64,000 bases of DNA from Nitrospinales bacterium. Its GTDB lineage: Bacteria > Nitrospinota > Nitrospinia > Nitrospinales > VA-1. The position numbers were made by a program, and so were the translations under genes. The stretch's first letter is position 1. Each line of letters opens with the position of its first letter. The notes under the pieces are model-generated. The model did not search any database. It was not told the origin of the DNA and saw only the letters and a program-made list of their open reading frames with translations. Positions 7,944 through 61,221 of this stretch are shown here, piece by piece. Location of the stretch: contig OZ242182.1 in NCBI GenBank assembly GCA_965205835.1, positions 1,532,226 through 1,596,225 on the forward strand. The letters run 5' to 3'.

Positions 7944-8058
7944 GTGCCCGGTTGGTAGTCCAGAGCTTTAACAATATCATCAAAACCCAGATCGCCCTGA
8001 TGTATTCAAACCAAAAATAAGGGGCTTCTATGGCCGGTTCAATAAAAAAGTCCTCGGA

Positions 8059-29909: not shown

Positions 29910-30965
29910 ATGAAAACATTTTTTGTTACGGGTGGTGCCGGTTTTATCGGTGGAAACTTTATACTGAACCTGATGAAAACCAGGCAGGTAAAAATAATCA
30001 ATTATGACAAACTGACCTATGCGGGAAATCTCGACACTCTGGCATCAGTAGAAGGTGACAGTAATTATGAGTTTGTACGGGGTGATATCTGCGACAAAAG
30101 CAAACTAAGAGCATTATTTGGAGGACATGAAATCGATGCAGTGGTTCATTTTGCCGCCGAATCGCATGTTGACCGATCCATTGAAACACCGGGAGACTTC
30201 ATTCAAACTAACGTAGTGGGAACCTTTAAACTTCTGGAAACCGCCTGTGAGTACTGGCAAGGATTAAATAAAACTAACAATTTCAGGTTTCTGCATATTT
30301 CTACCGATGAGGTTTATGGCTCTTTGGGAAAAACCGGCTTGTTTACGGAAGAAACCGCATACGCTCCGAACTCGCCGTATGCCGCATCCAAAGCCTCCTC
30401 CGACCATCTTGTGAGAGCTTATCACAAAACATTTAACCTTCCGACACTGACCACGAATTGTTCCAACAACTATGGGCCGTACCAGTTTCCCGAAAAACTT
30501 TTACCATTGATGATTCATGACGCGCTTGAGGGGAAACCTCTTCCCATATACGGAGATGGACAACAGATAAGAGATTGGCTGTATGTTGAAGATCATTGCC
30601 GGGCCATTCTCGAAGTTTTGGAAAAAGGAACCGTGGGGCAGGTTTATAATATTGGCGGACATAATGAAAAAACCAATCTGGACGTTGTCCGGGCTCTATG
30701 CGGTATTTTAGATGAAAAGGTACCGAATTCTCCACACCGACCGCATAAAAATCTGATCAGTTTTGTCGAGGACCGCCCTGGACATGACCGGCGTTATGCC
30801 ATTGACGCAAGCAAGATTCAAAATCAACTGGGCTGGGTTCCCAAGGAATCCTTTGAAACCGGTTTAAGAAAAACTGTGAGCTGGTATTTGGACAATCCGG
30901 ACTGGACAAACAGGGTCATGTCCGGCACCTGCAAAGGGGAACGTTTGGGCCTTGAAAAATCCTGA
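29910..30965 (+). CDS. rfbB: dTDP-glucose 4,6-dehydratase
   Basis: [12 protein letters not shown] ... [12 protein letters not shown] ... [15 protein letters not shown] ... [15 protein letters not shown] over 351 aa. Confidence 0.95.
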
Positions 30966-33053: not shown

Positions 33054-34048
33054 TTGTCCCAAGACACTTTGATAGTTCTGGAATCGACCACCTATCCAGG
33101 AACAACAGAAGAAGTGCTGATCCCTGAATTGGAGTCGTCTAACAACTTGAAACAAGGGCAAGATTTTTTTGTAGCTTACTCTGCAGAACGTGAAAACCCC
33201 AACAATCCAAGTTTCCGGACAGCTGACATCCCAAAAGTAATTGGGGCGGATTCTGAAATAGCTATGGAAACTGCTTCTGCCCTTTATGGAACAATTATTA
33301 AAAAATTGTTCCCGGTTTCGAGCACTAAAACAGCAGAAGCAACAAAGCTGATGGAGAATGTTTTCCGCGCCGTGAACATTGCATTGACCAATGAACTAAA
33401 AGTGATCTTCGAAAAAATGGGCATAGACGTGTGGGAGGTCATTGAGGCCGCAAAAACCAAACCTTTCGGATACATGCCTTTTTACCCGGGCCCTGGTCTT
33501 GGGGGACATTGCATCCCCATCGACCCTTTCTATTTAACCTGGAAAGCCCGTGAATATGGGGTAACGACTCGGTTCATAGAACTGGCTGGAGAAGTGAATA
33601 TATCCATGCCCGACTATGTGGTAGAAAAAATATTGTCTGCACTCAATTGAGCAGAAAAGAAAATAAGTGATTGTCGTAATTTGTTATTGGGGCTGGCCTA
33701 CAAGAAAAACGTAGATGACGAACGTGAATCTGTCACTTATAAAATAATCAATTTACTACAAAAACAGGGCGCGCATGTTGACTATAACGACCCGTTCATC
33801 CCAGAAATCAAACAAACCAGAGAGCATGAAAAACTTAAAGAAAAAAAAGCGTGCCCTTAAATGATTTAGGCTCATATGATCTGACTGCTATCTTGACAGA
33901 CCACTCGGATTACAACTACGAAAATATCGTAAAAATTCAAAAATCGTTATTGATACTCGCAACGCCTGCAAAGGTACAAAGTCCGATAAAATCATCAAAG
34001 CTTAATCCATTGACTCCACGCACATCCATAAAAACGCTCCGTTCATGA
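33054..34048 (+). pseudogene. Nucleotide-sugar (UDP-GlcNAc/ManNAc-type) 6-dehydrogenase pseudogene
   Basis: The N-terminal Rossmann ~100 aa are missing. The middle is intact (LESTTYPGTTEE ... FVAYSAERENPNN ... GGHCIPIDPFYL). An in-frame TGA lies at 33648-33650. The reading then continues LLLGLAYKKNVDDERES...GAHVDYNDPF, and a frameshift leads to YDLTAILTDHSDYNYENIV (33851-34048). Confidence 0.8.
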
Positions 34049-35056: not shown

Positions 35057-36292
35057 ATGGAAAAACTTCTACCTGACACTAATTCATCCGAAACAAACCC
35101 TGCGGTTCCCGTCCTGGACAAACTGATCCAATTTTCCTTGTGCACGTTTGCCGTTTTCTCCATGTTTTCCATCAGTGTCACCCAGATTTCATTTGCTATC
35201 GGAGCATTTGCTTGGTTGATTAAGACCCACTTAACCAAATCATGGAAAGAGTTGAGAGGTACGCTGGCTGGTATTGCCATCTTGTGTTTTTGCTTGGCCT
35301 CTATTTTATCGCTAATAACCGCGGTTGATTTAGAACACAGTATAAAGTTTCTGAAGAAATTGCTTCAGTTTGTCATCTTCTTTTGGGTGGCCAATGCGGT
35401 TCAGGGCGCAAAACAAAGAGATTTGCTCATTATTCTGCTTATTGTCGCAGGGGTAGTTGCAGCCTTAAATGGACTCTTACCATTGTTAGACCCTGGCTCT
35501 TTTTCACCTGAAAGGCTCTACGGAGAAAGCAGGCGGTTACTCGGCACCACGAGCGTCGCGGCTTTTAGCGCGGCTATGATGCTTGTTAGCCTGGCGACCT
35601 TGGGAAGATTCTTGTTCCATAAGACCAAAGAATATTGGGTGCTGGGGAGTGTGGGTATTATTGGCCTTGCATTGTTGTTCGCTCAGACGAGGCAGGCTTG
35701 GCTCGGATTTTTTACAGGGACCTTATTTTTGGTTTTCTGCTGGAACAAAAAATATCTTCTGGTCTTGCCGTTATTGCTGGCAAGCCTATTATTTTTTGCT
35801 CCTGATAGAATTGTAGATCGTATGTCTAGTTTCACAGACTTGCAAGACCATTCATTCCGTGCAAGGGTATCCCTTTGGAAAGGTGGATGGGAAATTTTCA
35901 AGGACTACCCCATAACAGGGTGTGGCTATAACTGTGTGGACTTGGTTCACTCTCAATACCCTGATCCTTCAGGGTGGATTGCGCGTCTCCGGGGAATGCA
36001 CAGCAATATAATCCAATTATTGGTGGATACTGGAATTGTAGGGCTGGGAACCTGGCTTTCAATCTGGGTGGCCTATTTCGTTGAAGTCTTTAAACGCTGG
36101 AGGGCTTTGGCTGGAGAAAATTTTCAAGACAATGCCGCCGGGATATTAATGGGATCATCAGCAGCGGTACTTTCCTTTTTAATTGGAGGTTTTTTCGAGA
36201 CTAATATCTACGACTCGGAAGTTGCAATGTTGCTGTATTTTCTAATGGGTCTTTCTTTGGCCAAAGTAGAAAAAGTGACCAGAGCTGACTAG
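35057..36292 (+). CDS. O-antigen ligase (WaaL/Wzy_C) family membrane protein
   Basis: The protein has about 10-12 TM helices. The Wzy_C segment reads AQTRQAWLGFFTGTLFLVF, and the periplasmic loop ends in GMHSNIIQLLVDTGIVGL. Confidence 0.8.
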   Translation: MEKLLPDTNSSETNPAVPVLDKLIQFSLCTFAVFSMFSISVTQISFAIGAFAWLIKTHLTKSWKELRGTLAGIAILCFCLASILSLITAVDLEHSIKFLKKLLQFVIFFWVANAVQGAKQRDLLIILLIVAGVVAALNGLLPLLDPGSFSPERLYGESRRLLGTTSVAAFSAAMMLVSLATLGRFLFHKTKEYWVLGSVGIIGLALLFAQTRQAWLGFFTGTLFLVFCWNKKYLLVLPLLLASLLFFAPDRIVDRMSSFTDLQDHSFRARVSLWKGGWEIFKDYPITGCGYNCVDLVHSQYPDPSGWIARLRGMHSNIIQLLVDTGIVGLGTWLSIWVAYFVEVFKRWRALAGENFQDNAAGILMGSSAAVLSFLIGGFFETNIYDSEVAMLLYFLMGLSLAKVEKVTRAD

Positions 36293-36432: not shown

Positions 36433-37092
36433 ATGGAACAGTATTTTGAAACACTAAAACTCAAACCCGGTGCGTCTATTGAAGATGTGAAACGGGCCTA
36501 CAAGGTCCAAGTCAAGATATGGCATCCGGACCGGTTTCCAGCGGAATCGCCACACCTGCAAAAGAAGGCCCATGAAATGTTCCAGAAGATCACGGCCGCC
36601 TACAAAAAAATCTACGACGCTCACACCAGTCACAAATACAGTGGAGCTCCAGGCTGGAAGGGAAAGCGGTATACGCGGGCTTCCCGGAAATCCGCAAGGA
36701 CTACCCCCGAGTCAGACTCCCAAAAATCCGAACCCGTTCCGAGGTTTGACATCCGGGTCTGGCCCAATGGGGATAAGTATGAGGGCCAAATGTTCCAAGA
36801 CCAGATGCATGGCAGAGGAATCTTTACCTCTTCCCAAGGCTATGTTTATACCGGTGAATTCAAACATGGAAAACCCAATGGTTTAGGAAAACTGGTCTAT
36901 GACAACGGCGACCAGTATGAGGGGAGTCTCGTAAATGACATGCTCCACGGCAAAGGGAAATACCTTTACGCAAATGGGGATCGCTACCAGGGCGAATTCC
37001 AGAATGATTTACCCCACGGGCAGGGTGCCTACATCCTTACAAACGGCAATATTTATTCAGGGTCCTGGGAAAATGGCGGGCTGGTTTCCTAA
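36433..37092 (+). CDS. J-domain protein with C-terminal MORN repeats
   Basis: The J domain reads YFETLKLKPGASIEDVKRAYKVQVKIWHPDRF, including HPD. At least five MORN units follow (YEGQMFQDQMHGRG, YTGEFKHGKPNGLG, YEGSLVNDMLHGKG, YQGEFQNDLPHGQG, YSGSWENG). Confidence 0.85.
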   Translation: MEQYFETLKLKPGASIEDVKRAYKVQVKIWHPDRFPAESPHLQKKAHEMFQKITAAYKKIYDAHTSHKYSGAPGWKGKRYTRASRKSARTTPESDSQKSEPVPRFDIRVWPNGDKYEGQMFQDQMHGRGIFTSSQGYVYTGEFKHGKPNGLGKLVYDNGDQYEGSLVNDMLHGKGKYLYANGDRYQGEFQNDLPHGQGAYILTNGNIYSGSWENGGLVS

Positions 37093-37441: not shown

Positions 37442-39379
37442 ATGCACATTATTCTAAAGCACACCTCAATCTATAGTCGAAACAAAAAACGTACCATAAT
37501 GATTGTCGCAGATGCCTTTCTGGTGACGTTTTCACTGTGGTTAGCGTTTGCCTTACGCCTGGGTGAGTGGTTCTGGCCAACCCAAGGCCAAGCTTGGTTA
37601 TTTATTGCGGCTCCCCTTTTAGCTGTCCCTGTTTTTATCAAGTTTGACTTGTATCGAGAAGTAGTACGTTTCATAGGGACCAGGTCCATGATAGCGATTG
37701 CCCAGGCTACAGGAGTGTTGGCTCTATTATTGCTGTTGATCACGATTACTTTTTTTCCTTTATATGTCGCATATACCGGCAGAGAAATTTTGTTTCCCCG
37801 TTCTGTCCCCATACTTTTTTGGATGACTCTGCTGTTAAATGTGGGAGGTAGTCGGCAGATAGCCCGTTGGCTGTTATCGGAGCCTGCCATCACTAACGCT
37901 CAATCCGGAAAGAACATCCTGATATATGGCGCAGGCAGAGTTGGTTTGGAACTGGCCTCATCTTTATCTTTTAACAAGAATATATGGGTTTGGGGCATTA
38001 TTGATGATGACCTTACATTGCAGGGTCACTATATCCAAAACTTGAAAGTCTTGGGAGGTCGTTCCGAAATCGCGAAAATTCGTGCCATGACCAGCTCTTT
38101 GGAAGTCCTGCTGGCAATGCCCGAAATGTCCCGCGACACGCGTAAAGAGTTATTGAAATATCTTGAAGATAAAAACGTGGCTGTCAGAACAATACCTTCA
38201 CTCGGTGATATTACGTCCCGAGCGGTGACGGTGGATGACCTGAGAGATGTCGATGTCGGCGATTTGTTGGCACGTAAAGTCGTGGCACCAAATCAAAAGC
38301 TTCTTGCCGCCTGCATCACCAATAAAAAGATACTGGTAACCGGTGCCGGTGGGTCAATAGGTTCTGAGCTCTGCCGCCAAAGTCTGGCACTGGACCCCGT
38401 GCTTATCGTTTTGTTCGATCATTCAGAACTCAACCTCTACAAAGTTAACGCTGAGTTAGTCAATCTATGCGCAGGTACGGACTGTTCTGACGTCAAGATC
38501 ATTCCCATCCTTGGCTCCGTCACCAACAAACAGCGTGTAGAAGAAACCATCAGAAATTTCGCAATCGACACCATCTACCATGCTGCCGCCTACAAACATG
38601 TGGCTCTCATCGAAAACAACATTGAAGAAGGCGTGTTCAATAACATATTCGGTACCTATACCATTGCCCAGGCCGCCCTTGATCTGAATGTGGAACGTTT
38701 TATCCTCATATCCACCGACAAGGCTGTTCATCCAACCAGCGTCATGGGGGCAACCAAAAGAATTGCCGAACTAATAGTACAAGGGCTCGCCCGAAGAGGT
38801 GGAATAGAGCATATAAGCAGGCAAAAATCTACACGCTTTATCATAGTGCGCTTTGGCAATGTGTTAGGGTCCTCCGGTTCCGTAGTGCCCCTATTTCAGC
38901 GGCAGATAGCCTCTGGGGGTCCCATTACCATCACCCATCCAGAAGCCACTCGATATTTCATGACCATTTCAGAAGCCAGCCAACTTGTAATGCAAGCAGG
39001 CTCCATGGGTAGTCATTGCAGTACCTTCGCGCTCGAAATGGGCGATCCTGTATCAATCCTTGCTCTGGCAAAACAAATGGTTTACTTGTCCGGTCGCATG
39101 TTAAAAACCAATGAAAGCAACATAGAAAAATCAAACATTGAGATTCAGTACACCGGGTTGCAAAAGGGGGAAAAAATCCACGAAGAGCTCTTCATCGGCG
39201 ATAACATTACCAGCACCGAACATCCAATGATTTTAGAAGCTCAAGAGAGTCTTTGCGAATGGTCAGAAGTTGAGGAAATAATATCTGGACTCAAATCATG
39301 GGATAACCTTGATGACGAAGAAAAGCGACAGTTGCTTATGAAATATTCTTATGGAAAAGGACAGCAGAAATCCAGCTGA
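37442..39379 (+). CDS. Membrane-anchored polysaccharide biosynthesis protein CapD/PglF/WbpM type (UDP-HexNAc 4,6-dehydratase)
   Basis: Four N-terminal TM helices are followed by two Rossmann regions (ILIYGAGRVG; ILVTGAGGSIGSEL). HAAAYKHVALIENN, STDKAVHPTSVMGATKR and RFGNVLGSSGSV are also present. Confidence 0.9.
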   Translation: MHIILKHTSIYSRNKKRTIMIVADAFLVTFSLWLAFALRLGEWFWPTQGQAWLFIAAPLLAVPVFIKFDLYREVVRFIGTRSMIAIAQATGVLALLLLLITITFFPLYVAYTGREILFPRSVPILFWMTLLLNVGGSRQIARWLLSEPAITNAQSGKNILIYGAGRVGLELASSLSFNKNIWVWGIIDDDLTLQGHYIQNLKVLGGRSEIAKIRAMTSSLEVLLAMPEMSRDTRKELLKYLEDKNVAVRTIPSLGDITSRAVTVDDLRDVDVGDLLARKVVAPNQKLLAACITNKKILVTGAGGSIGSELCRQSLALDPVLIVLFDHSELNLYKVNAELVNLCAGTDCSDVKIIPILGSVTNKQRVEETIRNFAIDTIYHAAAYKHVALIENNIEEGVFNNIFGTYTIAQAALDLNVERFILISTDKAVHPTSVMGATKRIAELIVQGLARRGGIEHISRQKSTRFIIVRFGNVLGSSGSVVPLFQRQIASGGPITITHPEATRYFMTISEASQLVMQAGSMGSHCSTFALEMGDPVSILALAKQMVYLSGRMLKTNESNIEKSNIEIQYTGLQKGEKIHEELFIGDNITSTEHPMILEAQESLCEWSEVEEIISGLKSWDNLDDEEKRQLLMKYSYGKGQQKSS

Positions 39380-39576: not shown

Positions 39577-40824
39577 TTGTTAGGAGATGTGTCTCGTGTA
39601 GTCAGTGGGCAGCTGATTGCTCAGGTAATTAATTTATTGGCATTACTGTTCGTAACTTATTTTTATAAACCAGAAGTATTTGGTGTTTTTGCCGTTTTTT
39701 CTGCTTTGGTATGGATTATGTCAATCATTGCAACAGGGCAAGCCGAGCACCTTATCATAACAATGCCAACAAAGAATGCGGCGAAATCATTAACGGTAGC
39801 CATATTTTTGGCTGTGTTGCTTATAAGTAGTTTATCCATTGTATTCTTTGAGCTTACCCTGAAACTATGGTTTCAGTCATCATCGATAAAATATAGTTTA
39901 TCGTTGTTAATTGCCCTCAATATTAGCCTTGTTAGTGTCAATCAAACAATTCGCTCTTACGCAACTTATTTAGGAGAATTCAGATGTCACGGCATGGCGG
40001 CGATCCTAAATTCCATAGGAATCACGGTTGTATCTTTAGGCTACCCAATACTAATAGACGATAGTCCATCAGTCTTAGGTTTGATTTTGGGGCAAACTAC
40101 AGGTTTAGCATTTTCTGTGGTTTCATTTGCGCTTTATACGGACATACTTCGTATCAGTAAAAAAAATATCCTTCTAGCTCCAAGGACTTTTTATGGGCAA
40201 TTATCAAAGTTACCTAGGCTGTTAGTGATGAATTTATCAAGAACGATGTGCTTTAGGTTACCGGTATTGATTGTTGGAGCTGTTGCCAGTAGTGGTGTTG
40301 TCGGTGTTTATGCGATGGCAGAAAGAATAACCTCAATTCCCACTGGCATACTAGGGTCAGCTATCGGTCAGGTATTCCGACATCGCTTTAGAAAAGATTT
40401 TGCAGATAAATCAAGGAATATCAGTCAACCACGTCAAATCATAAAAACAACTTCTATGCTCGCCTTACTCGGCTATAGCACATTTATCTGGCTTGCCGAT
40501 TGGTTGGTGTTGGTTTTTTTGGGCGAAAAATGGGCAGAAATAGTACCATTTGTGAGAATTATCGCTATCCTGGAAATGGTGAGTTTTGTGTTTTATAGCA
40601 CTGAAGACATAGCCATTATCAGAGGATCTTATAATTACCGAATGTTATGGCAGTCGGCTAATTTTTTAACACTTGCGATACTGTACTGTACCACGAACTT
40701 CACCGATTTCCTTTCTGGATTAGGGGTTAAGGGGATTGTGATTATTATGTGTGCCGTGCGATCACTACTGATAATTTATGATATTTCAAAGACGTGGCAA
40801 CCTAACATTACGAATATAAAGTGA
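39577..40824 (+). CDS. wzx: Oligosaccharide flippase (Wzx-type, polysaccharide biosynthesis protein family)
   Basis: The protein is 415 aa with about 12 TM helices. The N-terminus reads SGQLIAQVINLLALLFVTYFYKPEVFGVFAVF, as in Wzx/RfbX flippases. The start is TTG. The coding sequence is AT-rich. Confidence 0.75.
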   Translation: MLGDVSRVVSGQLIAQVINLLALLFVTYFYKPEVFGVFAVFSALVWIMSIIATGQAEHLIITMPTKNAAKSLTVAIFLAVLLISSLSIVFFELTLKLWFQSSSIKYSLSLLIALNISLVSVNQTIRSYATYLGEFRCHGMAAILNSIGITVVSLGYPILIDDSPSVLGLILGQTTGLAFSVVSFALYTDILRISKKNILLAPRTFYGQLSKLPRLLVMNLSRTMCFRLPVLIVGAVASSGVVGVYAMAERITSIPTGILGSAIGQVFRHRFRKDFADKSRNISQPRQIIKTTSMLALLGYSTFIWLADWLVLVFLGEKWAEIVPFVRIIAILEMVSFVFYSTEDIAIIRGSYNYRMLWQSANFLTLAILYCTTNFTDFLSGLGVKGIVIIMCAVRSLLIIYDISKTWQPNITNIK

Positions 40825-41972
40825 CAAATAACATTGCAGGAGTAGTAATATCGTCGTTGGGTACGATTGTTCTTCTGATCGGTCAAATTACTATTGATCA
40901 TAGATTGGCATATGAAGGAATCCCACTGAATACAGGCGTGTTTTTGCTGGCATTTTTAACAACGATCTGTCTCGCTAAAGGGAGACCATTGATAAAAGTA
41001 TCTGTTTATCTTTCTCCGTTATTAACTGCGCTCATTCCCCTGTTATATAGCGATAATTTTGAATATGGCGTGTACAAAGCATCAAATTTAATAATTTCAT
41101 CATCATTGGCAACCGCTTGTTATTTTTATGTATCAAAGAATTTTGGGGTGGATTTCTTATTAAAAAACATATTAACAATGCTTTCGTGTTTGTTGATTCT
41201 AGCGATCATACATAAATTAAATTATGGGTTTGGGTGTAGAAGGGATGTTAATTTTTTCCTAAATGGACCAATCACTTTTTCAAGATTGATGGGTATGGCT
41301 TTGTTAATAAGCATTTATTTGTTTGCAGGTTTCAGGCGAATAGTTGTGATGCTGATTTTTCTTTTTGCCATGGTGTGGACAAATTCAAAAGGCCCTCTTT
41401 TAGCTCTCTTTATTACATTGCTGTATATGTATTTTAATTCAGCAGAAAAACGTAAACGTATTCCTGACATATTGGTGGGCACCTTCACAAGTTTGATTGT
41501 TTGCTTTATGTTATGGCAATTTACCGAAATAAACAAACTGTGCCTATTTAACAGGTTTCCCAACGATATAACATCTAGCAGTTATTCAGTAAGGCTTGAA
41601 ATGATGGAAAGCTCCGTAAGAGAGATTATAAGCCAGCCAATAATAGGTGCTGGTTTAGGTGACTGGGCTTTAGTTGTACCCAATAAATACGAGTTACTAT
41701 ATCCGCATAATATCTTTTTAGAAGTTTTTGTTGAGTTTGGTCTTATATTTGGTTGTGTTTTTCTAATTCCATATTTTTATTTTATTTTATTTTTAGATAG
41801 GAACAATATTTTCTCTACGCTTGCTTTATTTCACTTTATTGCCCAACAAGTGAGTGGCGATATATTAGATGGAAGATACATTGTTGTTTTCAGTGTATTA
41901 TCATTGTTAGTCAATAAGGGTTTTCCATCGCCAGAAAGTAAGGAGAAAAACCAACCTCTGTTCTCGTCATGA
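40821..41972 (+). CDS. wzy: O-antigen polymerase (Wzy-type, Wzy_C domain)
   Basis: The protein is 383 aa and polytopic. The Wzy_C-like segment reads TNSKGPLLALFITLLYMY, and the loop ends in YPHNIFLEVFVEFGLIFG. The start overlaps the wzx stop (GTGA). Confidence 0.7.
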   Translation: MTNNIAGVVISSLGTIVLLIGQITIDHRLAYEGIPLNTGVFLLAFLTTICLAKGRPLIKVSVYLSPLLTALIPLLYSDNFEYGVYKASNLIISSSLATACYFYVSKNFGVDFLLKNILTMLSCLLILAIIHKLNYGFGCRRDVNFFLNGPITFSRLMGMALLISIYLFAGFRRIVVMLIFLFAMVWTNSKGPLLALFITLLYMYFNSAEKRKRIPDILVGTFTSLIVCFMLWQFTEINKLCLFNRFPNDITSSSYSVRLEMMESSVREIISQPIIGAGLGDWALVVPNKYELLYPHNIFLEVFVEFGLIFGCVFLIPYFYFILFLDRNNIFSTLALFHFIAQQVSGDILDGRYIVVFSVLSLLVNKGFPSPESKEKNQPLFSS

Positions 41973-42126
41973 CCCTAATTCCAGTAGTACCAATCAGTCT
42001 TTTCATTTTTCTATTTCACTTTCTCGTCAGTGATGGACCTATAGCTATCTTGATGAGGAGATATAAAGCTGAAAATTACCGCAGTATTTCTTCTGCCCTT
42101 ACCCGGGCATACCAATACCAATCCGC

Positions 42127-43404
42127 ATGCTTCCGCATAGACATGGCTTTATTTTGAAGGTCTGGATATTTCAAACGGGCGAGCCTTTGCATGTTGACAG
42201 CGGGCAACCTCGGCCAATGCGTGCGATGAATTTAAGCGACAAGCTGGTTGATGCGGGTCATGATGTTGTCTTGTGGAGTTCGGCATTTAGTCATCAACAT
42301 AAACTACACCGAAGCAAAAAGTACGCAACACTCCAAATCAATGACAGTTTAGAAATTCGTTTGATCCCCAGCTGTGGTTATACAAGACATATTGGTTTAG
42401 GACGACTAATAGATCATGCTCAATTGGCATGGAATTTGGCGAGGTTGCTGAAAAAAGAAAAAGATAAACCCAGTATAGCATTTATTGGCTATCCACCGAT
42501 TGAGGTTGCTGCAGTTGTAAGTCTCTGGCTAAAAAAACGCAATGTGCCGACGGTATTGGATGTCAAGGATTTGTGGCCTTCGATGTTTATTGAGGTGCTA
42601 CCTGGCTTCTTGCGGCCACTAGGGAAAGTGGTTTTTTACCCTTATTTCTACCTGGCGAAACGCACTATTCGAGAGGTGAGCTGCGTGTCTTCAATGGCAC
42701 CGGATTTTTTAGAACGGGTGTTAAGTTTTGCTGGTAAAAAAGGCTCGGAACTGGATAAAGTCTTTCGGCTCACTGCTCCTGGCGCACAATCCACCGGCAA
42801 AGAATTGCTGCTGGCAAAAACATGGTGGCAAAAGCAAGGCGTTGACGGAATTTTACCAATTGTATTTTTCGTAGGCGGCTTTGCGTCTGTTTTTGATTTT
42901 AAACCTGTGCAACAAGCAATAAAACAACTGGTGGAGCAAGGAATAAAATGTCAGTTTGTGTTGTGCGGTTCCGGGTATTATTTAGATGCGGTTAAAACCA
43001 TGATGCAAGCCTTACCTCATGTGGTTTTCCCAGGGTGGATTGACAGACCTAAGATTGAAAGTTTGGCCAAGATGTCGATTGCCTCTCTGGCGCCGTACAA
43101 AAACATTGATAATTTTATACTGAATACCCCTAATAAAATCGTTGATGCGCTCGCGCTAGGATTGCCAATACTGAGTCCATTAAGAGGGGAGGTGGGTAAT
43201 TTAATCTTAAATCATAACGTAGGCATGACTTATGGTAGAGATAAAACACTGAAGCAGTGTATTGAGATAATGCTCGAAAATAAATCGCTGCGAAGAGCCA
43301 TGTCAAACAACGCCCGGAAGCTTTATAACGATGCTTTTGAGTTCGATAAAGTTTATGATGATTTTGTTGCGCACCTTGAGAAAATAGTAAAGGATGAGCG
43401 GTAA
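42127..43404 (+). CDS. Family 4 glycosyltransferase (WbuB-like)
   Basis: KVWIFQTGEPLHVDSGQPRPMRAMNLSDKLVDAGHDVVLWSSAF resembles the N-terminus of WbuB-type GT4 enzymes. The C-terminal half carries the GT-B EX7E region. The true start may be the in-frame TTG at 42154 (MKVWIFQ). Confidence 0.8.
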   Translation: MLPHRHGFILKVWIFQTGEPLHVDSGQPRPMRAMNLSDKLVDAGHDVVLWSSAFSHQHKLHRSKKYATLQINDSLEIRLIPSCGYTRHIGLGRLIDHAQLAWNLARLLKKEKDKPSIAFIGYPPIEVAAVVSLWLKKRNVPTVLDVKDLWPSMFIEVLPGFLRPLGKVVFYPYFYLAKRTIREVSCVSSMAPDFLERVLSFAGKKGSELDKVFRLTAPGAQSTGKELLLAKTWWQKQGVDGILPIVFFVGGFASVFDFKPVQQAIKQLVEQGIKCQFVLCGSGYYLDAVKTMMQALPHVVFPGWIDRPKIESLAKMSIASLAPYKNIDNFILNTPNKIVDALALGLPILSPLRGEVGNLILNHNVGMTYGRDKTLKQCIEIMLENKSLRRAMSNNARKLYNDAFEFDKVYDDFVAHLEKIVKDER

Positions 43405-43444
43405 AAATATTGAGTTAAATCGCTATGATGATCGTTAAAAAAAT

Positions 43445-44503
43445 ATGAATAATCTCTTTAATAGTAATTTGGGTGAGCTGGCAGATCCAACTGAATTTCA
43501 TGAGCCTTTGTCCATTGACATTGCTGATTCCGGTTTTCTTGCGTCTTCTCTGAAGACCATGATAATGATAAGAAAAGTTGAGCAACAACTGGCTTTTGGC
43601 AAGAAAAATGGTTTGATTGGCGGGCCTGTGCACCTTGGGGTTGGGCAAGAAGCCATTGCTGTTGGCGTGTCTGCTTCTTTGCATAAAACGGACAGGGTGT
43701 TTGGCACACATCGTTCCCATTCTCATTTGCTTGCTCTCAATCCTGATTTTTACAAACTTTTTGCTGAAGTGTTGGGAAAAAAAACCGGCTTTTCCTGTGG
43801 CATGGGCGGCTCAATGCATTTGTGGGATCAGCCGAATGGCTTTTATGGATCGGTGCCCATCGTATCCGGCACTGTGTCTTTGGCGGTTGGTGCGGCAATG
43901 GCCGCAAAATTGCAGAAAACTAGCGATATAGGTGTCGCTTATATCGGTGATGGTGCTGTGGAAGAAGGTATTGTGCATGAATCACTGAATTTAGCGCGTA
44001 TCCAAAACGCGCCCATGTTGTTTGTACTTGAAAATAACCTGTTCGCGAGCCATATGCATATTTCATTGCGACAACCTGGCAATATGACCTCCAGGTTTGC
44101 TGTGGCAAATAATATTCCACATAAGCTGGTGGATGGAAACAATGTAATTGCGGTAGCAAGAGTTGCAAAGAGCTTGATTGGCAATGCCAGAGAGGGTAAT
44201 GGACCAGCTTTTTTGGAGCTTGTTACTTATCGCTGGTATGGACATGTTGATTGGAGGGATGACGTGGATGTGGGTGTCGCGCGTTCACTGGATGATATTG
44301 AGAACTGGAAAGCAAGAGACCCTATTTCTCGTCTGTCTGCCGCCATGATGGATAAAGGCATATGGACTAAAGAACAGGAAGATGCTTTGAGTGATGAATT
44401 TGACAAGCAGATAGAAATTGCATGGGAAAAAGCAATGAGCGACCCGTATCCCGATGATGATGCGACACTCAATTATGTTTATTCATCCAACTCTTCGAAA
44501 TAA
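43445..44503 (+). CDS. Thiamine-diphosphate-dependent dehydrogenase E1 component, alpha subunit
   Basis: GPVHLGVGQEAIAVG ... YIGDGAVEEGIVHESLNLARIQNAPMLFVLENNLFA (the GDG-x24-NN TPP-binding motif) ... TYRWYGHV. Confidence 0.9.
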   Translation: MNNLFNSNLGELADPTEFHEPLSIDIADSGFLASSLKTMIMIRKVEQQLAFGKKNGLIGGPVHLGVGQEAIAVGVSASLHKTDRVFGTHRSHSHLLALNPDFYKLFAEVLGKKTGFSCGMGGSMHLWDQPNGFYGSVPIVSGTVSLAVGAAMAAKLQKTSDIGVAYIGDGAVEEGIVHESLNLARIQNAPMLFVLENNLFASHMHISLRQPGNMTSRFAVANNIPHKLVDGNNVIAVARVAKSLIGNAREGNGPAFLELVTYRWYGHVDWRDDVDVGVARSLDDIENWKARDPISRLSAAMMDKGIWTKEQEDALSDEFDKQIEIAWEKAMSDPYPDDDATLNYVYSSNSSK

Positions 44504-44509
44504 TTACTA

Positions 44510-45505
44510 ATGACATTGAAAAAATATAATTATGGTGCTGCCATTTGCGCTGCTTTTGAGTATTTATTAGAAAATTATCCAGAGGTGTTTGTGATTGGCC
44601 AGGGTTTGTGGAGCCCTTGGTATGTTGGCAATTCCATGACTGGTCTTGATAAAAAATTTGGCGTTGAGCGTGTTATTGATACGCCGGTTTCTGAATCCGC
44701 ATGTACTGGTGCTACGGTGGGTGCATCGCTGGCAGGGATGAAGCCAATCGCAGTACATCCGAGAATGGATTTTATGCTATATGCAATGGATGCAGTTGTT
44801 AATCAAGCTGCGAAGTGGTCGCATATGATGGGTGGTCAGGCGCATCCGTCGGTTACCATTCGATCTATCATTAATCGTGGCGGGGAGCAGGGCGCGCAAC
44901 ATTCACAAGCGCTTCACGCCTGGTTTGCTCATGTGCCTGGGCTTCGAGTTGTTATGCCTGCCACCGTAGCTGACGCAAGGGATTTGCTGATTGCTGCGGT
45001 TTTATGCGAGGATCCGGTGATGTACATAGATGATCGATGGTTATATGAGCAGGAGGACGACCTTGCGCCTATAGAAGAGATTGACCTCACTACACAAGGC
45101 CCACGCTCTATCTGTTCGGGAAGTGACATCACTGTTGTTGGCTCTGGATATACCTCTTATCTTGCAAAACAAGCTGCCGAACAGCTTGAAACTGAGGGCG
45201 TATCGGCAGAAGTAATCGATATTCGAGTGCTGAACCCATTTGACCCGGGATTGATTATTGAATCTGTGAGAAAAACTCAGCATCTGTTGGCTATAGATTC
45301 TGGCTGGCGTTCTGTCGGATTTTCTGCGGAAGTGATTTCGAGCGTTGTGGAGAGGGTTCCTGTGGATTGTCTGAAGAAACCACCACGACGTCTCACATTA
45401 CCTGATGCCCCTGCTCCCACCTCGCGAGTACTTGAGAGTGAATATTACTTTACTTTGAAAGATATTGTTGAGGCAGCAAAAGCATTTATGGAAACTGAAA
45501 GATGA
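44510..45505 (+). CDS. E1 component beta subunit (transketolase-like pyrimidine-binding and C-terminal domains)
   Basis: RVIDTPVSESACTGATVGASLAGMKPI ... QHSQALHAWFAHVPGLRVVMPATVADARDLL ... DITVVGSGY ... AEVIDIRVLNPFD. Confidence 0.9.
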   Translation: MTLKKYNYGAAICAAFEYLLENYPEVFVIGQGLWSPWYVGNSMTGLDKKFGVERVIDTPVSESACTGATVGASLAGMKPIAVHPRMDFMLYAMDAVVNQAAKWSHMMGGQAHPSVTIRSIINRGGEQGAQHSQALHAWFAHVPGLRVVMPATVADARDLLIAAVLCEDPVMYIDDRWLYEQEDDLAPIEEIDLTTQGPRSICSGSDITVVGSGYTSYLAKQAAEQLETEGVSAEVIDIRVLNPFDPGLIIESVRKTQHLLAIDSGWRSVGFSAEVISSVVERVPVDCLKKPPRRLTLPDAPAPTSRVLESEYYFTLKDIVEAAKAFMETER

Positions 45506-46197
45506 CAATGGAGAACGAAACGAAAGATTGGTACAAGGAATATTATAAGAAGCGGGGCGCTTCCCGAAATGACTTATTTAACCCCGAAGTTTTATTTCAG
45601 GAGTTGGCATATAAAAGAGCATGGCTTGAGGCTTTTCGTGGCATAGATAAACAGGCTGAAATACTTGATGTAGGCGGAGGGGTGGGGGCGGGGCTATTAA
45701 GAGCGATTGAAGCAGGATTTTCCTCAAAACAATTATATCTTATCGACATAATGGAAGAACGCATAGAATATGCTAGGAAGCGGTTGCCGAATGATGTGCA
45801 TGTGCGCCAAGGCAATGCAGGTGATATGAGTTATTTTGATTCGTCCAAATTTGATGTGGTTACCTCATCTACTATGTTTATTCAATTACTAGACGAAATA
45901 CTTGCTGAAAAAATTGCAGGTGAAATGATAAGAGTGACAAAAAACAAAGGAATGTTGCTTATATTTGATTGGGTGTATGACTTTTGGCAATCAGAGTATG
46001 TGGCTGTAGATTACAGCAGAGTACATGCGTTATTTTGTAATAATCAAGCGGAGGTTCGTGTGGTAAAAAGAATCAAGGGACAATTGATACCACCGATCGG
46101 TCGTTTTCTTTCTAAATACCTGCCATCAATGTATTTTATTGCTCAGAAAATACCGCTGTCAACTGGACTGTATTGTTATATTCTGAAAAAATCCTGA
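45502..46197 (+). CDS. Class I SAM-dependent methyltransferase
   Basis: ILDVGGGVGAG is SAM motif I. FDVVTSSTMFIQL and LLIFDW are also present. The start overlaps the E1 beta stop (ATGA). Confidence 0.8.
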   Translation: MTMENETKDWYKEYYKKRGASRNDLFNPEVLFQELAYKRAWLEAFRGIDKQAEILDVGGGVGAGLLRAIEAGFSSKQLYLIDIMEERIEYARKRLPNDVHVRQGNAGDMSYFDSSKFDVVTSSTMFIQLLDEILAEKIAGEMIRVTKNKGMLLIFDWVYDFWQSEYVAVDYSRVHALFCNNQAEVRVVKRIKGQLIPPIGRFLSKYLPSMYFIAQKIPLSTGLYCYILKKS

Positions 46198-46219
46198 ATG
46201 AAATAAACGTCTTATAAGA

Positions 46220-47323
46220 ATGAAAGTTCCTTTTTTTAATTATCCTCGCGCTTATCTGGATGATCGGGAAAATCTGATCAATGTTTTTGAAGATGTCGGA
46301 ACTCGCGGTGCATTCATCATGCAGCAAGATCTTCGTGATTGGGAGCTCGCGCTTGCCGAATTTACAGGCGCAAAATATGCGGTCGGTGTAGCAAATGCTA
46401 CGGATGGTCTTGAGTTAGCTTGGATGGCATTGGGTTTGGGGCCTGGCGACGAGGTTATCTGCTGTTCTCACACCATGCTTGCAACTGCTTCTGCGATTAA
46501 AACTGCTGGCGGTACGCCTGTGCCTGTTGAGTTGGGAGAAGATAACCTGATAGACCCCGATGCTGTCGAAGCGGCAATTACCACAAGAACCGTTGGCATT
46601 ATGCCAACACAGCTCAATGGTCGAACCTGTAATATGGATCCTATTATGCGTATCGCAGAAAAAAATAATTTCTTCGTGGTAGAGGACTCTGCCCAGGCGT
46701 TGGGTTCGCGTTTTAAGGGTCAGCATGCGGGTACATTTGGTCATGCGGGCGCGTTCAGTTTCTTTCCCGCAAAGGTATTAGGTTGTCTTGGTGATGGCGG
46801 CGGGGTAGTTATAAATGACTTTAATTTATTTGATAAGGTCTATCAACTGCACGATCATGGCAGAGATATTAATGGCGAGGTAAGAAGCTGGGGAAGAAAT
46901 AGTCGGCTAGATAATCTGCAAGCGGCCATTCTGAACCACCGCATCAAAAGTTATGATCAAATAATTGCCAGACGTCGTGCTGTTGCCAGCATGTATCAGC
47001 AGCAATTGGGCGATCTTGAAGAATTGCAGTTGCCGCCTGCGCCAGATGCCAATCCTGATCATTTTGACGTTTATCAGAATTACGAGTTGCAAGCCGATAG
47101 ACGCGATGATTTAAAGCAATATCTTCATGCAAATGATATCGATACTCTGATTCAGTGGGGAGGAAAAGCTGTTCACCAGTGGGAGCATTTGGGGTTTGCC
47201 ATTACACTTCCAAAAGTTGAACGGTTTTTTCAGCGATGCATGATGTTGCCGATGAATATGTTCATTGATGATGATGATGTTAATTATGTGTGTAGCAAAA
47301 TAAGAGAGTTTTACAGGCAGTAG
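46220..47323 (+). CDS. DegT/DnrJ/EryC1/StrS-family sugar aminotransferase
   Basis: FTGAKYAVGVANATDGLELAWMALG ... IMPTQLNG ... VEDSAQALGS ... SFFPAKVLGCLGDGG over 367 aa. Confidence 0.9.
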   Translation: MKVPFFNYPRAYLDDRENLINVFEDVGTRGAFIMQQDLRDWELALAEFTGAKYAVGVANATDGLELAWMALGLGPGDEVICCSHTMLATASAIKTAGGTPVPVELGEDNLIDPDAVEAAITTRTVGIMPTQLNGRTCNMDPIMRIAEKNNFFVVEDSAQALGSRFKGQHAGTFGHAGAFSFFPAKVLGCLGDGGGVVINDFNLFDKVYQLHDHGRDINGEVRSWGRNSRLDNLQAAILNHRIKSYDQIIARRRAVASMYQQQLGDLEELQLPPAPDANPDHFDVYQNYELQADRRDDLKQYLHANDIDTLIQWGGKAVHQWEHLGFAITLPKVERFFQRCMMLPMNMFIDDDDVNYVCSKIREFYRQ

Positions 47324-47325
47324 CG

Positions 47326-48054
47326 ATGAAAAGAATGCTTGATTTTGTTATTGCCATGTTTGGATTGTTGATTGCCAGTCCAGTTTTGTTGCCATTGCTT
47401 TTTCTTGTCTGGATGCAAGATCGCCAGTCACCATTTTATATTGCTCATCGCGTTGGCAAAGACGAAAGATTGTTCAATATAGTAAAATTGAGATCTATGG
47501 TTGTTAATGCAGATAAGAATGGTGTTGATTCAACCAGCAACAGTGATGTGCGAATTACACCCATCGGTCATTTTATTCGTAATTATAAATTAGATGAGCT
47601 AACCCAGCTGTGGAATGTATTGTTGGGAGATATGAGCTTGGTTGGACCGCGTCCAAATGTGCAAAGTGAAACTGACTTGTATACAACTACTGAGAAAAAA
47701 TTGCTTTCTGTTAAGCCTGGTATTACTGATTTTTCATCAATTATCTTTTCTGATGAGGGGAATATTTTAGCAGGCAGACAGGACCCTGACTTGTCTTACA
47801 ATCAATTGATTCGCCCCTGGAAGTCGCGCCTGGGTCTAATTTATATCGCCCATCAATCCATGTGGCTTGATATACAACTGGTTTTCTACACTATCGCAAC
47901 TATTGTATCAAAGAGCCATGCTATCTCTTGGGTAGTCAAGAAACTTGATGATTTTGATGCAGGGGAAGATGTTATAAAAGTTTCACGCCGTGATAAAACG
48001 CTTGTTCCTCACCCTCCCCCGGGCACGGACCAGATTGTGACAGAGAGAAGTTAG
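47326..48054 (+). CDS. Small monotopic undecaprenyl-phosphate sugar-phosphate transferase (PglC/WbaP C-terminal type)
   Basis: MKRMLDFVIAMFGLLIASPVLLPLLFLVWMQDRQSPFY ... KLRSM ... DELTQLWNVLLGDMSLVGPRP ... KPGITD. Confidence 0.9.
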   Translation: MKRMLDFVIAMFGLLIASPVLLPLLFLVWMQDRQSPFYIAHRVGKDERLFNIVKLRSMVVNADKNGVDSTSNSDVRITPIGHFIRNYKLDELTQLWNVLLGDMSLVGPRPNVQSETDLYTTTEKKLLSVKPGITDFSSIIFSDEGNILAGRQDPDLSYNQLIRPWKSRLGLIYIAHQSMWLDIQLVFYTIATIVSKSHAISWVVKKLDDFDAGEDVIKVSRRDKTLVPHPPPGTDQIVTERS

Positions 48055-61100: not shown

Positions 61101-61221
61101 CGGACATTTGAGTGATCAGGACGTATTCATAGAATCCATCCCTTACTCAGAAACTCGCCGCTATGTCAAGTATGTGCTGAGAAATATGGGGATATATAAA
61201 GCACTATATTCTCCCTCCTGA
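58108..61221 (+). CDS. miaA: Single ORF fusing tRNA dimethylallyltransferase (MiaA, aa 1-296) to a signal/TM segment plus an Slt70-like soluble lytic transglycosylase (aa 297-1037)
   Basis: The N-terminus reads LIILTGPTNSGKSETALALARKLNTEIISADSLQVYKYFDIGTAKP ... YAKRQLTWFRK, which is MiaA. The in-frame ATG at 58996 opens MADKLLSLLPKVAACFLVLLLGFAQTGEA, a signal-peptide-like segment. TPR/superhelical repeats follow. The C-terminal SLT domain reads GIIRQESFFDSQALSPAGARGLMQIMPATG ... YNAGP. Confidence 0.85.
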   Translation: MLPLIILTGPTNSGKSETALALARKLNTEIISADSLQVYKYFDIGTAKPLQVVREDIPHHLIDVLEPDEEFNAFDFKTRALEIIRELMNRNKIPILVGGTGLYIKVLTEDYDCAEGASPEIREKIRDDIRDQGVEKVYQELQRVDPEYATKISETDSLRIERALGVYLDTGKRFSEFHESDFPTANQFPIHTFILERDRAELYSQIDQRVDKMIEDGFAREVQSILERGYSPDLKPCRSIGYAQMIQYHQGQLDMDRATYEVKRETRHYAKRQLTWFRKMNNANKLSVDSKDTPKTMADKLLSLLPKVAACFLVLLLGFAQTGEARSTHYEKAKKFFQKKDWGKAKNSLLALQNQKPGSIEAKRARFLLALIHAEQGKPEEAIKLLEPLSENYKEVEDYIRFHLIQAQAQAGKHEKARDNALELLKHSPNTLLYAKLHLILAEVQTQLKKKEAAIKTLEGAIRSITKDFSRRKFREFLPDLIFQLARTQKQSGKQTEAYLNFRKLHIQYPNHDQTPEAEMALKRLSALATVKEIPLTLREYTNRIQGMFENVRYQEIIQEVQTLQKEKDLLPGRFYFFLARAHGGLRDRKKANKVLKQFLKTYPHHAKVQNAKFDIGRNLWNLGQPMAGAKYFKEITQDVPSTELAMKAQFFLGKIYEERKNFPEALRNYKTALEKYPSESYAQWAGWRLGWVHYLDGKFEQAFNRFQDAANRFPNKSFIEYNLYWSAKSAEKLEKKDVARDLYAKVAELYPYTFHGIRAKDRLLTLDVKGVKLDTVLANQTPSSKEENPQLGRPLSEREKFHHIRATELATLGLTQEARIEIGELQKTVRKNLTGVLWLSQLYHQAQGYAESLRLLHLYKDFTTKPKEKNLSSKFWKHFFPLAYEEAILTYANSRRVDPFFVSGIIRQESFFDSQALSPAGARGLMQIMPATGERLYPKTKLKKPFETDVLFDPDMNIQLGVKYVSLLNKRFNKNGMHILISYNAGPHILKKWLKQFGHLSDQDVFIESIPYSETRRYVKYVLRNMGIYKALYSPS

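Follow-up and report, generated by a model that had tools for sequence, protein, structure and literature searches.

A surface-polysaccharide locus in 64 kb of DNA from a Nitrospinales bacterium (the whole stretch analyzed, hereafter the window) encodes an E1 alpha/beta pair that is far from isolated: its clade is very large, conserved and horizontally spread, and the cassette around the pair is common to hundreds of mostly aquatic bacterial species. Judging from sequence and genomic setting, the pair is probably a stand-alone ThDP-dependent carboligase working outside any dehydrogenase complex, which would branch UDP-4-keto-6-deoxy-HexNAc at C4 ahead of the action of a DegT aminotransferase, methylation and transfer by a PglC-like enzyme. 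We infer the donor (pyruvate), the acceptor, the regiochemistry and the order of steps. The five-gene block (the last five lines) and the genes upstream of it are:

37442-39379, + strand, PglF/CapD-type membrane-anchored UDP-GlcNAc 4,6-dehydratase (Polysacc_synt_2, 358 bits; PDB 5bju)
39577-40824, + strand, Wzx-type flippase (Pfam Polysacc_synt_3 / Polysacc_synt)
40821-41972, + strand, Wzy-type polymerase (Pfam Wzy_C, 56 bits)
42127-43404, + strand, GT4 glycosyltransferase (Pfam Glycos_transf_1 / Glyco_transf_4)
43445-44503, + strand, E1 alpha-like ThDP-binding subunit, 352 aa (E1_dh, 210 bits)
44510-45505, + strand, E1 beta-like subunit, 331 aa (Transket_pyr, pyrimidine-binding, and Transketolase_C, C-terminal)
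45502-46197, + strand, class I SAM methyltransferase, 231 aa (Methyltransf_11/25/31)
46220-47323, + strand, DegT-family PLP aminotransferase, 367 aa (DegT_DnrJ_EryC1, 285 bits)
47326-48054, + strand, small monotopic PglC-like phosphoglycosyl transferase (PGT), 242 aa (Bac_transf, 176 bits)

The first-pass annotation had described the block as five closely spaced ORFs on one strand, and we reproduced its coordinates and spacings exactly (gaps of 6, 22 and 2 nt after the first, third and fourth genes, and a 4-nt ATGA overlap of the second with the third). The domain identities it gave for the five genes were upheld by a Pfam scan, and domain matches confirmed the glycan neighborhood that it reported, with wzx, wzy and GT4 upstream and the dehydratase at 37442-39379. 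This arrangement is not due to chance, since it recurs in dozens of unrelated genomes.

The GDG...NN ThDP motif that had been claimed for the alpha subunit was found at G168-D169-G170 ... N197-N198 and is invariant in the alignment (A1). E1 beta could be aligned along its full length to that of G. stearothermophilus, matching its cofactor-activating Glu (TPVSES) and its catalytic His (AQHSQ). The top NCBIfam models for the pair are those of PDH E1 alpha and beta, both below cut-off: the equivalog scores are 264 bits against a cut-off of 394 for alpha and 235 bits against 321 for beta. TPP_enzyme_C gave only 21 bits on the window enzyme, under its cut-off, and the top PDB match of E1 alpha, human PDH E1 alpha, reached merely 142 bits. 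Signature motifs of the glycan-cassette clade of E1 alpha are GMGGSMHL and WYGHVDWRDDVDVGV, the latter a clade-specific substitute for the active-site-channel (lipoyl-channel) loop that is equivalent to the PDH phosphorylation loop. The pair thus has the fold, ThDP motif and catalytic Glu/His of the heterotetrameric pyruvate, acetoin and branched-chain 2-oxoacid dehydrogenase E1s, but differs from them in its sub-equivalog scores, in this loop and in being without an E2/E3 partner. The alignments also retain both His residues with which true E1s reductively acylate lipoamide, so sequence alone leaves room for lipoyl chemistry.

The statement that the 64 kb hold no E2, E3 or lipoyl gene stood up to Pfam scans, which covered 39 large ORFs of the window (among them the nine in or next to the block) and detected none, and to tblastn, in which a genuine E2 and E. 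coli Lpd were searched against the entire 64 kb and returned no match. The sole Biotin_lipoyl match in the scanned ORFs is an HlyD-type membrane-fusion protein. In a canonical E1 pair used as control, E2 lies directly downstream.

The E1 alpha clade is present in at least 577 species genomes, among them a Nitrospinales MAG (90% identical, and of the relatives found the closest), SAR86, Pelagibacteraceae, Prochlorococcus, Polaromonas, Gemmatimonadota and acI Actinobacteria. Cultured carriers include Prochlorococcus MIT 9302 and SS51, Polaromonas eurypsychrophila CGMCC 1.15322 and Verrucomicrobiae DG1235. In a neighbor-joining tree, built without support values, the clade is tight and monophyletic, and a long stem separates it from the canonical E1+E2 operon. 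Synteny was counted in 50 loci flanked on either side by 5 kb or more of sequence, and these co-occurrence counts are not phylogenetically independent. E1 beta adjoins E1 alpha in all 50 of these well-flanked loci and a PglC-like PGT adjoins the pair in 49, while E2 and E3 were each found in 0/50. Linkage to E2/E3 had been named beforehand as evidence against an orphan pair dedicated to the glycan locus, and its count of zero supports that role. DegT occurs in 40/50 loci and an aldo-keto reductase (AKR) in 8/50, never both together; one or the other is present in 48/50, and neither in L058 and L086. A homologue of the PglF dehydratase lies within 7 kb of the pair in only 29/50. The glycan context of the pair is kept in 50 or more species, which belong to more than 10 phyla. 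GT4 homologues adjoin the cassette in 35/50 well-flanked loci, with identities of up to 80% (Nitrospinales) and about 50% (Polaromonas, Rhodoferax and Synechococcus MAGs); GT4 travels with the cassette and likely adds the second sugar to the branched first residue.

For the acceptor, the top PDB match of 37442-39379 is C. jejuni PglF (WlaL, 5bju; 268 bits), and we propose this enzyme as the supplier of UDP-2-acetamido-2,6-dideoxy-hexos-4-ulose. The PGT, which has its Asp-Glu dyad in KLDELTQL, matches PglC best (8e37, 83 bits). PGTs act on UDP-sugars, and the adjacency of the PGT together with the PglF match points to an acceptor derived from UDP-HexNAc. Comparative genomics and context thus support the earlier suggestions that the pair is fed by a PglF-type UDP-GlcNAc 4,6-dehydratase and follows an AviB1/AviB2-type C-branching logic; genomic context likewise favors the modified sugar as first residue, since the pair would act upstream of the initiating transferase.

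In the proposed pathway, the PglF-like enzyme would convert UDP-GlcNAc to UDP-4-keto-6-deoxy-HexNAc. E1 alpha/beta would decarboxylate pyruvate to hydroxyethyl-ThDP and add it onto the C4 ketone, giving UDP-4-C-acetyl-6-deoxy-HexNAc, whose C4 would carry a tertiary alcohol. DegT would then transaminate the side-chain ketone to a 1-aminoethyl branch, and in other genomes AKR would instead reduce it to 1-hydroxyethyl. The methyltransferase would methylate the product, probably at the new amine, and the PglC-like transferase would load the finished UDP-sugar on undecaprenyl phosphate as residue 1, after which the co-inherited GT4, Wzx and Wzy would extend, flip and polymerize the unit. AKR and DegT loci are interleaved on the E1 tree, and this, with the interchangeability of the two enzymes, is the pattern expected if E1 makes a ketone that needs tailoring. 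Because the pathway as drawn offers a single carbonyl, E1 must act on the 4-keto group, leaving the branch ketone to the tailoring enzyme.

DegT (PLP-lysine motif SFFPAKVLG) finds its top PDB matches in the C-3-type sugar aminotransferases DesV (220 bits), WbpE and QdtB, against only 84 bits for PglE. Taken with the alternation with AKR, this likeness suggests that the most likely target of DegT is the new branch ketone and not ring C4, giving a 1-aminoethyl branch like that of kibdelomycin. Its close homologues are cassette-specific: all four at 76-81% identity sit in the same cassette. The 231-aa methyltransferase (motif I, ILDVGGGVG) is a rare accessory type, unlike the usual cassette methyltransferase, with only 29 homologues among 5.8 billion proteins; those with 57% and 52% identity are likewise neighbors of DegT/PGT/ThDP-pair cassettes. 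In the PDB it has only weak matches, to LahSB and to CypM, an amine N-methyltransferase, and we propose it as the enzyme methylating the branched sugar, at N or O. Methyltransferases resembling phosphoethanolamine N-methyltransferase (PMT-like) occur in 42/61 DegT loci and 0/11 AKR-only loci, that is, solely alongside DegT.

E1 pairs of antibiotic sugar pathways put an acetyl branch on a keto sugar, which is then reduced in paulomycin or transaminated in kibdelomycin (PMC4753412, PMC12247030). These alpha-KADH2 pairs (AviB1/AviB2 of avilamycin, Pau11/Pau12 of paulomycin, AlmDI/DII of aldgamycin and KbDH-alpha/beta of kibdelomycin) resemble the window pair in fold and gene context. They too have a split alpha/beta E1 fold, lack E2/E3 and sit next to an NDP-sugar 4,6-dehydratase, and the branch ketone is then tailored by an AKR in the paulomycin pathway (Pau7), by an aminotransferase in that of kibdelomycin, and by methyltransferases (PMC4753412, PMC12247030). 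KbDH-alpha/beta couples pyruvate to a ketone in vitro, and branches of this type undergo reduction, methylation, oxidation or transamination (PMC12247030). The window differs in being a primary cell-surface polysaccharide (Wzx/Wzy) locus, in its predicted acceptor, a keto sugar from UDP-HexNAc, in a product passed straight to the initiating phosphoglycosyl transferase and in a clade spread over many non-actinobacterial phyla. The YerE/YerF pathway of yersiniose synthesis (Yersinia pseudotuberculosis O-antigen) joins a pyruvate-derived C2 unit, ThDP-dependently and as proposed for the window pair, to C4 of a nucleotide-4-keto-6-deoxy sugar, but the acetyl branch is then reduced (PMC12247030, PMC4753412), whereas we propose transamination. 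YerE, moreover, is a decarboxylase-superfamily enzyme made of one chain, and its substrate is a CDP-3,6-dideoxy sugar, whereas the window enzyme is of two-subunit E1 type with a predicted UDP-HexNAc-type substrate. In one locus (L096), an orthologous cassette (DegT 55%, PGT 57%, both methyltransferase types) has a split transketolase, absent from the window, where E1 alpha/beta would be. It resembles the split-gene transketolases of miharamycin and amipurimycin, which a review names as candidate keto-sugar branching enzymes with a proposed hydroxyacetyl branching; the published examples, whose branching role is proposed, are all from Streptomycetes. Because such enzymes are proposed to branch keto sugars, we count this replacement, by analogy, in favor of a branching role for the pair.

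The block could instead serve a bacillosamine- or AATGal-type pathway, in which DegT or the reductase acts at ring C4 and E1, via acyl-ThDP, acylates the 4-amine or 4-hydroxyl in place of PglD. The PglF-PglE-PglD-PglC pathway to di-N-acetylbacillosamine in Campylobacter jejuni has the same flanking PglF-like dehydratase and PglC-like small PGT and, as predicted for the window, a modified 6-deoxy-HexNAc as residue 1; the window has an E1 pair and a methyltransferase inserted and is without a PglD-type acetyltransferase. The DegT/AKR alternation fits tailoring at ring C4 too. We nevertheless consider this reading unlikely: the aminotransferase of the window is not PglE-like (84-94 bits against PglE/PseC-type C4 aminotransferases, 220 against DesV), and the pair is replaceable by a split transketolase, which lacks such acyl-transfer chemistry. 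Conversion of hydroxyethyl-ThDP to acetyl-ThDP requires a two-electron acceptor (lipoamide, FAD or Fe-S), and such a partner is encoded in 0/50 loci. We know of no precedent for an E1 pair as acyl donor in a pathway of this kind.

The pair might also make or process a non-sugar substituent: a 2-oxo acid could, for instance, yield an aldehyde or acyloin that is joined to the glycan after amination or reduction. Or the pair might branch another keto sugar such as dTDP-4-keto-6-deoxyglucose, whose maker rmlB (29910-30965) shares the window locus with rmlA and rmlD. E1-type pairs do occur in non-sugar secondary metabolism, for example on a Streptomyces plasmid beside an NRPS condensation protein, and PglF homologues are near the pair in little more than half of the loci. 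We give this little credence, as the near-obligate partner is an initiating PGT, the rml genes are not conserved partners and the cassette has no conserved ligase or transferase to attach a free substituent. An ordinary pyruvate, acetoin or branched-chain 2-oxoacid dehydrogenase E1 that happens to sit in a glycan locus, with E2/E3 elsewhere, would explain the PDH E1 models and structures among the top matches and the full set of catalytic residues, but is strongly disfavored by the scores of both subunits well under the equivalog cut-offs, the replaced lipoyl-channel loop, a clade apart from the canonical operon, and a glycan context conserved across phyla with E2/E3 linkage in 0/50 loci.

The literature consulted contained no characterized pathway with the five-gene block, in line with the first-pass annotation, and to our knowledge no described bacterial glycan contains a 4-C-(1-aminoethyl) HexNAc. 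If the branching pathway is correct, the first sugar of the surface polysaccharide would most likely carry a two-carbon branch and be a sugar so far undescribed.

The five genes that the first-pass annotation had placed at 43445-48054 were found at exactly those positions, all on the forward strand and separated as described (gaps of 6, 22 and 2 nt at the first, third and fourth junctions and an ATGA overlap at the second), and Pfam searches bore out the domain identities given to each:

43445-44503 (+): E1 alpha subunit; E1_dh, 210 bits
44510-45505 (+): E1 beta subunit; Transket_pyr, 89 bits, and Transketolase_C, 98 bits
45502-46197 (+): methyltransferase (MT), 231 aa; class I SAM methyltransferase families, SAM motif I present
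46220-47323 (+): DegT aminotransferase; DegT_DnrJ_EryC1, 285 bits, PLP-lysine motif SFFPAKVLG
47326-48054 (+): PglC-like phosphoglycosyl transferase (PGT); Bac_transf, 176 bits, Asp-Glu dyad present

The glycan genes expected upstream of this block (Wzx, Wzy and a GT4 glycosyltransferase) were recovered with Pfam, and the gene order runs GT4-E1 alpha-E1 beta-MT-DegT-PGT. The dehydratase at 37442-39379, previously called CapD/PglF-type, proved to be of the PglF type, with C. jejuni PglF as its nearest solved relative (5bju, 268 bits); its soluble domain covers residues ~270-645. The glycan locus extends from about 29.9 kb to 48,054, its 5' part comprising rmlB, rmlA, an epimerase, rmlD and a second Wzy_C protein, and its 3' boundary is identical in the closest relative. 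A scan for promoters and terminators between 36.9 and 49.4 kb stayed near chance level and gave no usable signal. GC content is 0.36-0.44 over 40001-48000 and 0.45-0.52 across most of the flanking sequence, and GC skew is clearly positive over the wzx-to-PGT segment, which is consistent with horizontally acquired DNA. The two distinct Wzy_C-domain membrane proteins of the locus, at 35057-36292 and 40821-41972 (+), presumably act one as O-antigen ligase and the other as polymerase, and a DnaJ-MORN repeat protein (36433-37092) separates the 35057-36292 gene from the PglF-like gene. A 198-aa ORF at 33054-33650 (+), with the central domain and only part of the N-terminal domain of a UDP-glucose/GDP-mannose dehydrogenase, is probably what is left of a gene; the closest relative also has a remnant from this family, of 72 aa (locus L001, 964-1182). 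Elsewhere in the window, a single 1037-aa ORF at 58108-61221 (+) joins an N-terminal MiaA-type tRNA isopentenyltransferase (IPPT, 279 bits) to TPR repeats and, at its C-terminus, an SLT lytic transglycosylase domain; it represents an unusual fusion or else a read-through of two genes.

The pair has the two-chain E1 fold (PF00676 in the alpha chain, PF02779 and PF02780 in the beta chain) and aligns over its full length with solved E1 structures. The GDG...NN motif for thiamine diphosphate (ThDP) noted earlier is invariant in our alignment of E1 alpha relatives (GDG168-170, NN197-198). In E1 beta, the cofactor-activating glutamate lies in TPVSES, which aligns with TPLAES of 1w85/3duf, and this residue and the catalytic histidines of the pair align with those of the G. 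stearothermophilus and human E1. Against the NCBIfam equivalogs for pyruvate dehydrogenase (PDH), E1 alpha scored 264 bits for a cut-off of 394 (TIGR03182) and E1 beta 235 bits for a cut-off of 321 (NF006667). The phosphorylation loop of PDH lines the lipoyl-lysine channel; at its position, after the catalytic YGH, the clade carries an invariant WYGHVDWRDDVDVGV instead. Split phosphonopyruvate decarboxylase, suggested in the first-pass annotation as a comparison, was rejected: the domains are E1_dh and transketolase-like rather than TPP_enzyme_N/C, and none of the 39 window ORFs scanned encodes a PEP mutase.

Homologues of E1 alpha number in the thousands, and every one of the best 120 clusters is at least 70% identical to it. 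Using two clade-specific peptides (WYGHVDW and GMGGSMHL) to scan one genome per species, we found carriers of the E1 alpha clade in at least 577 species and inspected the best 80 of these genomes. The pair is thus a member of a widespread clade rather than a one-off orphan; its nearest relative among the matches listed, at 90% identity, is from a Nitrospinales MAG. Other carriers include SAR86, Pelagibacteraceae, Ca. Thioglobus, Methylophilaceae, Synechococcus and Prochlorococcus (with the cultured MIT 9302 and SS51), and further carriers were found in Polaromonas, Gemmatimonadota, acI Actinobacteria, Verrucomicrobia, Bdellovibrionia, Chloroflexota and Vicinamibacterales. Among cultured carriers, Prochlorococcus MIT 9302 has the DegT version of the cassette, Prochlorococcus SS51 and Polaromonas eurypsychrophila CGMCC 1.15322 have the version with an aldo-keto reductase, and Verrucomicrobiae DG1235 is a further example. 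In a neighbor-joining tree the clade is monophyletic, with a long stem separating it from a canonical E1-E1-E2 operon, and its branching disregards taxonomy, which points to horizontal transfer. No clade members were found on plasmids (best match 42% identity), in phage records (best match 35%) or in complete E. coli genomes, and no solved O-antigen structure linked to the clade was found. Two MAG contigs labelled ‘Candidatus Micrarchaeota archaeon’ (L029) and ‘Bifidobacteriaceae’ (L034) carry cassettes of a Burkholderiales-like type and are probably mis-binned. The nearest Streptomyces pairs are both outside sugar clusters: that of plasmid pSALBX2 neighbors a P450, an ABC-exporter and an acyl-CoA dehydrogenase (L089), and that of S. 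griseofuscus pSGRIFU1, without E2, lies directly upstream of an NRPS-type condensation-domain protein (L088, 11983-17513), in a non-sugar secondary-metabolite context with gamma-butyrolactone regulators.

The main evidence for our interpretation is synteny, which we assessed over loci from 50 species, each with 5 kb or more flanking E1 alpha on both sides. The arrangement of the block recurs across these loci: E1 beta is adjacent in all 50 and a small PglC-like PGT in 49, a cassette-type DegT is present in 40 and an aldo-keto reductase (AKR, PF00248) in 8, so that 48 have one or the other and none has both. A class I methyltransferase occurs in 39 of the 50, a homologous GT4 in 35, and a PglF-like dehydratase within 7 kb in 29. 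In the reverse direction, 4/4 DegT homologues (76-81% identity), including one from a Thermoleophilia genome, sit in GT4-MT-E1 alpha-E1 beta-DegT-PGT cassettes. Individual loci differ in other genes: in L093 (4901-5444), E1 beta and DegT are separated by the gene for a PemK-type toxin and a small ORF upstream of it, and in an Opitutia MAG (L046, 8286-9916) the E1 pair is directly preceded by a formyltransferase (Formyl_trans_N/C) and a de-N-acetylase of the PIG-L family, which suggests a variant that swaps the 2-N-acetyl group for formyl.

In one further locus (L096), a split transketolase occupies the position of the E1 pair (2984-4773, reverse strand, with neighbors at 4749-8571) and consists of a Transketolase_N protein of 278 aa and a Transket_pyr/Transketolase_C protein of 318 aa. 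The rest of the cassette is orthologous (DegT 55%, PGT 57%, type A MT 42%, window-type MT 52%), and the locus is a non-orthologous displacement of the E1 pair by another ThDP enzyme, of a family that has also been proposed for keto-sugar branching (review). That a different ThDP carboligase can take this position argues for carboligation as the conserved function and against one tied to lipoyl/E2 chemistry.

The best PDB matches of the window DegT were DesV (220 bits), WbpE and QdtB (range 198-220 bits), against 84-94 bits for PglE and PseC (PglE 1o61, 84 bits), which is consistent with a substrate ketone outside the ring. Cassette versions with AKR and with DegT are interleaved on the E1 tree, indicating that the two enzymes have been swapped repeatedly. 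In the variant with AKR and no DegT, AKR lies directly upstream of E1 alpha (L014, 9090-9968; L035, 8844-9785; L060, 9101-9988); AKR was also seen at L013, L015-L017, L020 and L021, and the Pelagibacteraceae loci L015 and L016 have both AKR and DegT. A second DegT-family aminotransferase of the window (2317-3819, reverse strand, 393 bits), distant from the glycan locus, is extended at its N-terminus by about 140 residues that have no domain match.

The cassette methyltransferases belong to several subfamilies. Type A, whose nearest solved relatives are, weakly (39 bits), phosphoethanolamine N-methyltransferases, was present at 42 of 61 DegT loci but at none of the 11 AKR-only loci, and type B at 6 of those 11, these loci not being phylogenetically independent; the confinement of type A to DegT loci, together with its relatives, fits N-methylation of the DegT-made amine. 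The window has no type A gene at the usual place upstream of E1 alpha (GT4-E1 alpha spacing, 40 nt), and in the closest relative two other methyltransferases flank the E1 pair, the first ahead of E1 alpha and the second separating E1 beta from DegT. The 231-aa MT of the window is from a rare family (29 database matches) that recurs beside such cassettes, and its weak PDB matches include CypM, an amine N-methyltransferase; we propose that it may N- or O-methylate the branched sugar.

A ThDP enzyme of the E1 type requires an electrophilic carbonyl as its reaction partner. Judging from gene content, the pathway offers one only, the C4 ketone from the PglF-type dehydratase, and with DegT and AKR both consuming ketones this suggests the order dehydratase, E1, tailoring, methylation, PGT. 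The dehydratase would make the C4 ketone, and E1 alpha/beta would put a pyruvate-derived acetyl unit on C4, creating a new ketone on the branch. This branch ketone, which we infer to be the substrate of the tailoring enzymes, would be reduced by AKR or transaminated by DegT, and the product would be methylated and the finished sugar transferred by the PGT. We consider this mechanism rather probable as a whole, its donor, acceptor, regiochemistry and step order all being predictions. The AviB1/AviB2-type pair Pau11/Pau12 installs a C-4' acetyl branch that the aldo-keto reductase Pau7 then reduces (PMC4753412); branches made by alpha-KADH2 enzymes (the two-chain E1 superfamily) can be reduced, methylated, oxidised or, in kibdelomycin, transaminated, and KbDH-alpha/beta couples pyruvate to a ketone in vitro (PMC12247030). 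Like AviB1/B2, Pau11/12 and KbDH-alpha/beta, the window pair lacks E2/E3 and lies among nucleotide-sugar genes beside a 4,6-dehydratase, here the predicted source of the keto-sugar, and the DegT or AKR of the cassettes parallels the branch-tailoring enzymes of paulomycin (Pau7) and kibdelomycin. Unlike YerE, the pair is a two-chain E1 (TPP_enzyme_C match 21.1 bits, cut-off 21.9), and unlike the bacillosamine pathway (PglF/PglE/PglD/PglC), the window locus has a DegT that is not of the PglE type and no acetyltransferase (PglD) was found in it.

That the pair instead serves as an acyl donor for N-acylation in place of PglD is unlikely: this would need an oxidant partner, which none of the 50 loci encodes, and it misfits the non-PglE-type aminotransferase, the displacement by transketolase and the AKR-only loci, which lack any amine. 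Slightly less probable still is a non-sugar product or, given the nearby rml genes, a dTDP-sugar acceptor, as the rml genes are not conserved partners whereas the UDP-dependent PGT is. A housekeeping E1 with E2/E3 encoded elsewhere in the genome is strongly disfavoured and very improbable. The absence of E2, E3 and lipoyl genes claimed for the 64 kb was upheld: Pfam found none in 39 large ORFs of the window, nine of them from the block and its surroundings, tblastn searches of all 64 kb with real E2 and E. coli Lpd as queries gave no match, and neither E2 nor E3 was found in any of the 50 related loci. In the control, a canonical E1 pair from a Nitratireductor plasmid (L090), E2 was found directly downstream, indicating that the method detects E2 where present.

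Comparative genomics therefore supports, with refinements, the C-branched-sugar pathway first suggested for the block. We filed the pair as a putative case of E1-type ThDP sugar C-branching shifted from actinomycete antibiotics to Wzx/Wzy surface-glycan loci, with a UDP-HexNAc-derived sugar as the predicted acceptor, which would become residue 1. Tentatively, and with somewhat less assurance than for the mechanism, we suggest that a mobile module in hundreds of species (PglF-like dehydratase, E1 pair or split transketolase, aminotransferase or AKR, methyltransferase, PglC-like PGT and cognate GT4) may make an undescribed 4-C-(1-aminoethyl)- or 4-C-(1-hydroxyethyl)-branched, often methylated 6-deoxy-HexNAc as the reducing-end residue of surface glycans. 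In the literature searched we found no description of the cassette; some of these loci may already be among the roughly 120 alpha-KADH2 clusters reportedly gathered in the 2024 bioinformatic survey of Krug et al. According to a 2025 review (PMC12247030), actinomycete antibiotics are the only known setting of E1-type sugar branching, and branching in LPS is ascribed to YerE-type enzymes.

The proposal is open to direct testing, with several cultured carriers and simple substrates (UDP-GlcNAc, pyruvate, ThDP, glutamate and SAM). For biocatalysis, it would offer a large natural collection of useful ThDP carboligases that build tertiary alcohols on UDP-sugars. If true, E1-type ThDP carboligases would be a mainstream tool for making the cell envelope in primary metabolism and not just a peculiarity of antibiotics from actinomycetes, and the C-branched amino sugars they help to make would form a new class. 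Among the carriers are some of the most abundant ocean and lake bacteria (SAR11, SAR86, Prochlorococcus, SUP05, Methylophilaceae and acI), and in these dominant members of the plankton branched residues would then be the anchor of the surface polysaccharides, which would affect the recognition of the cells by phages and grazers and the chemistry of the bacterial carbohydrate released to seawater.
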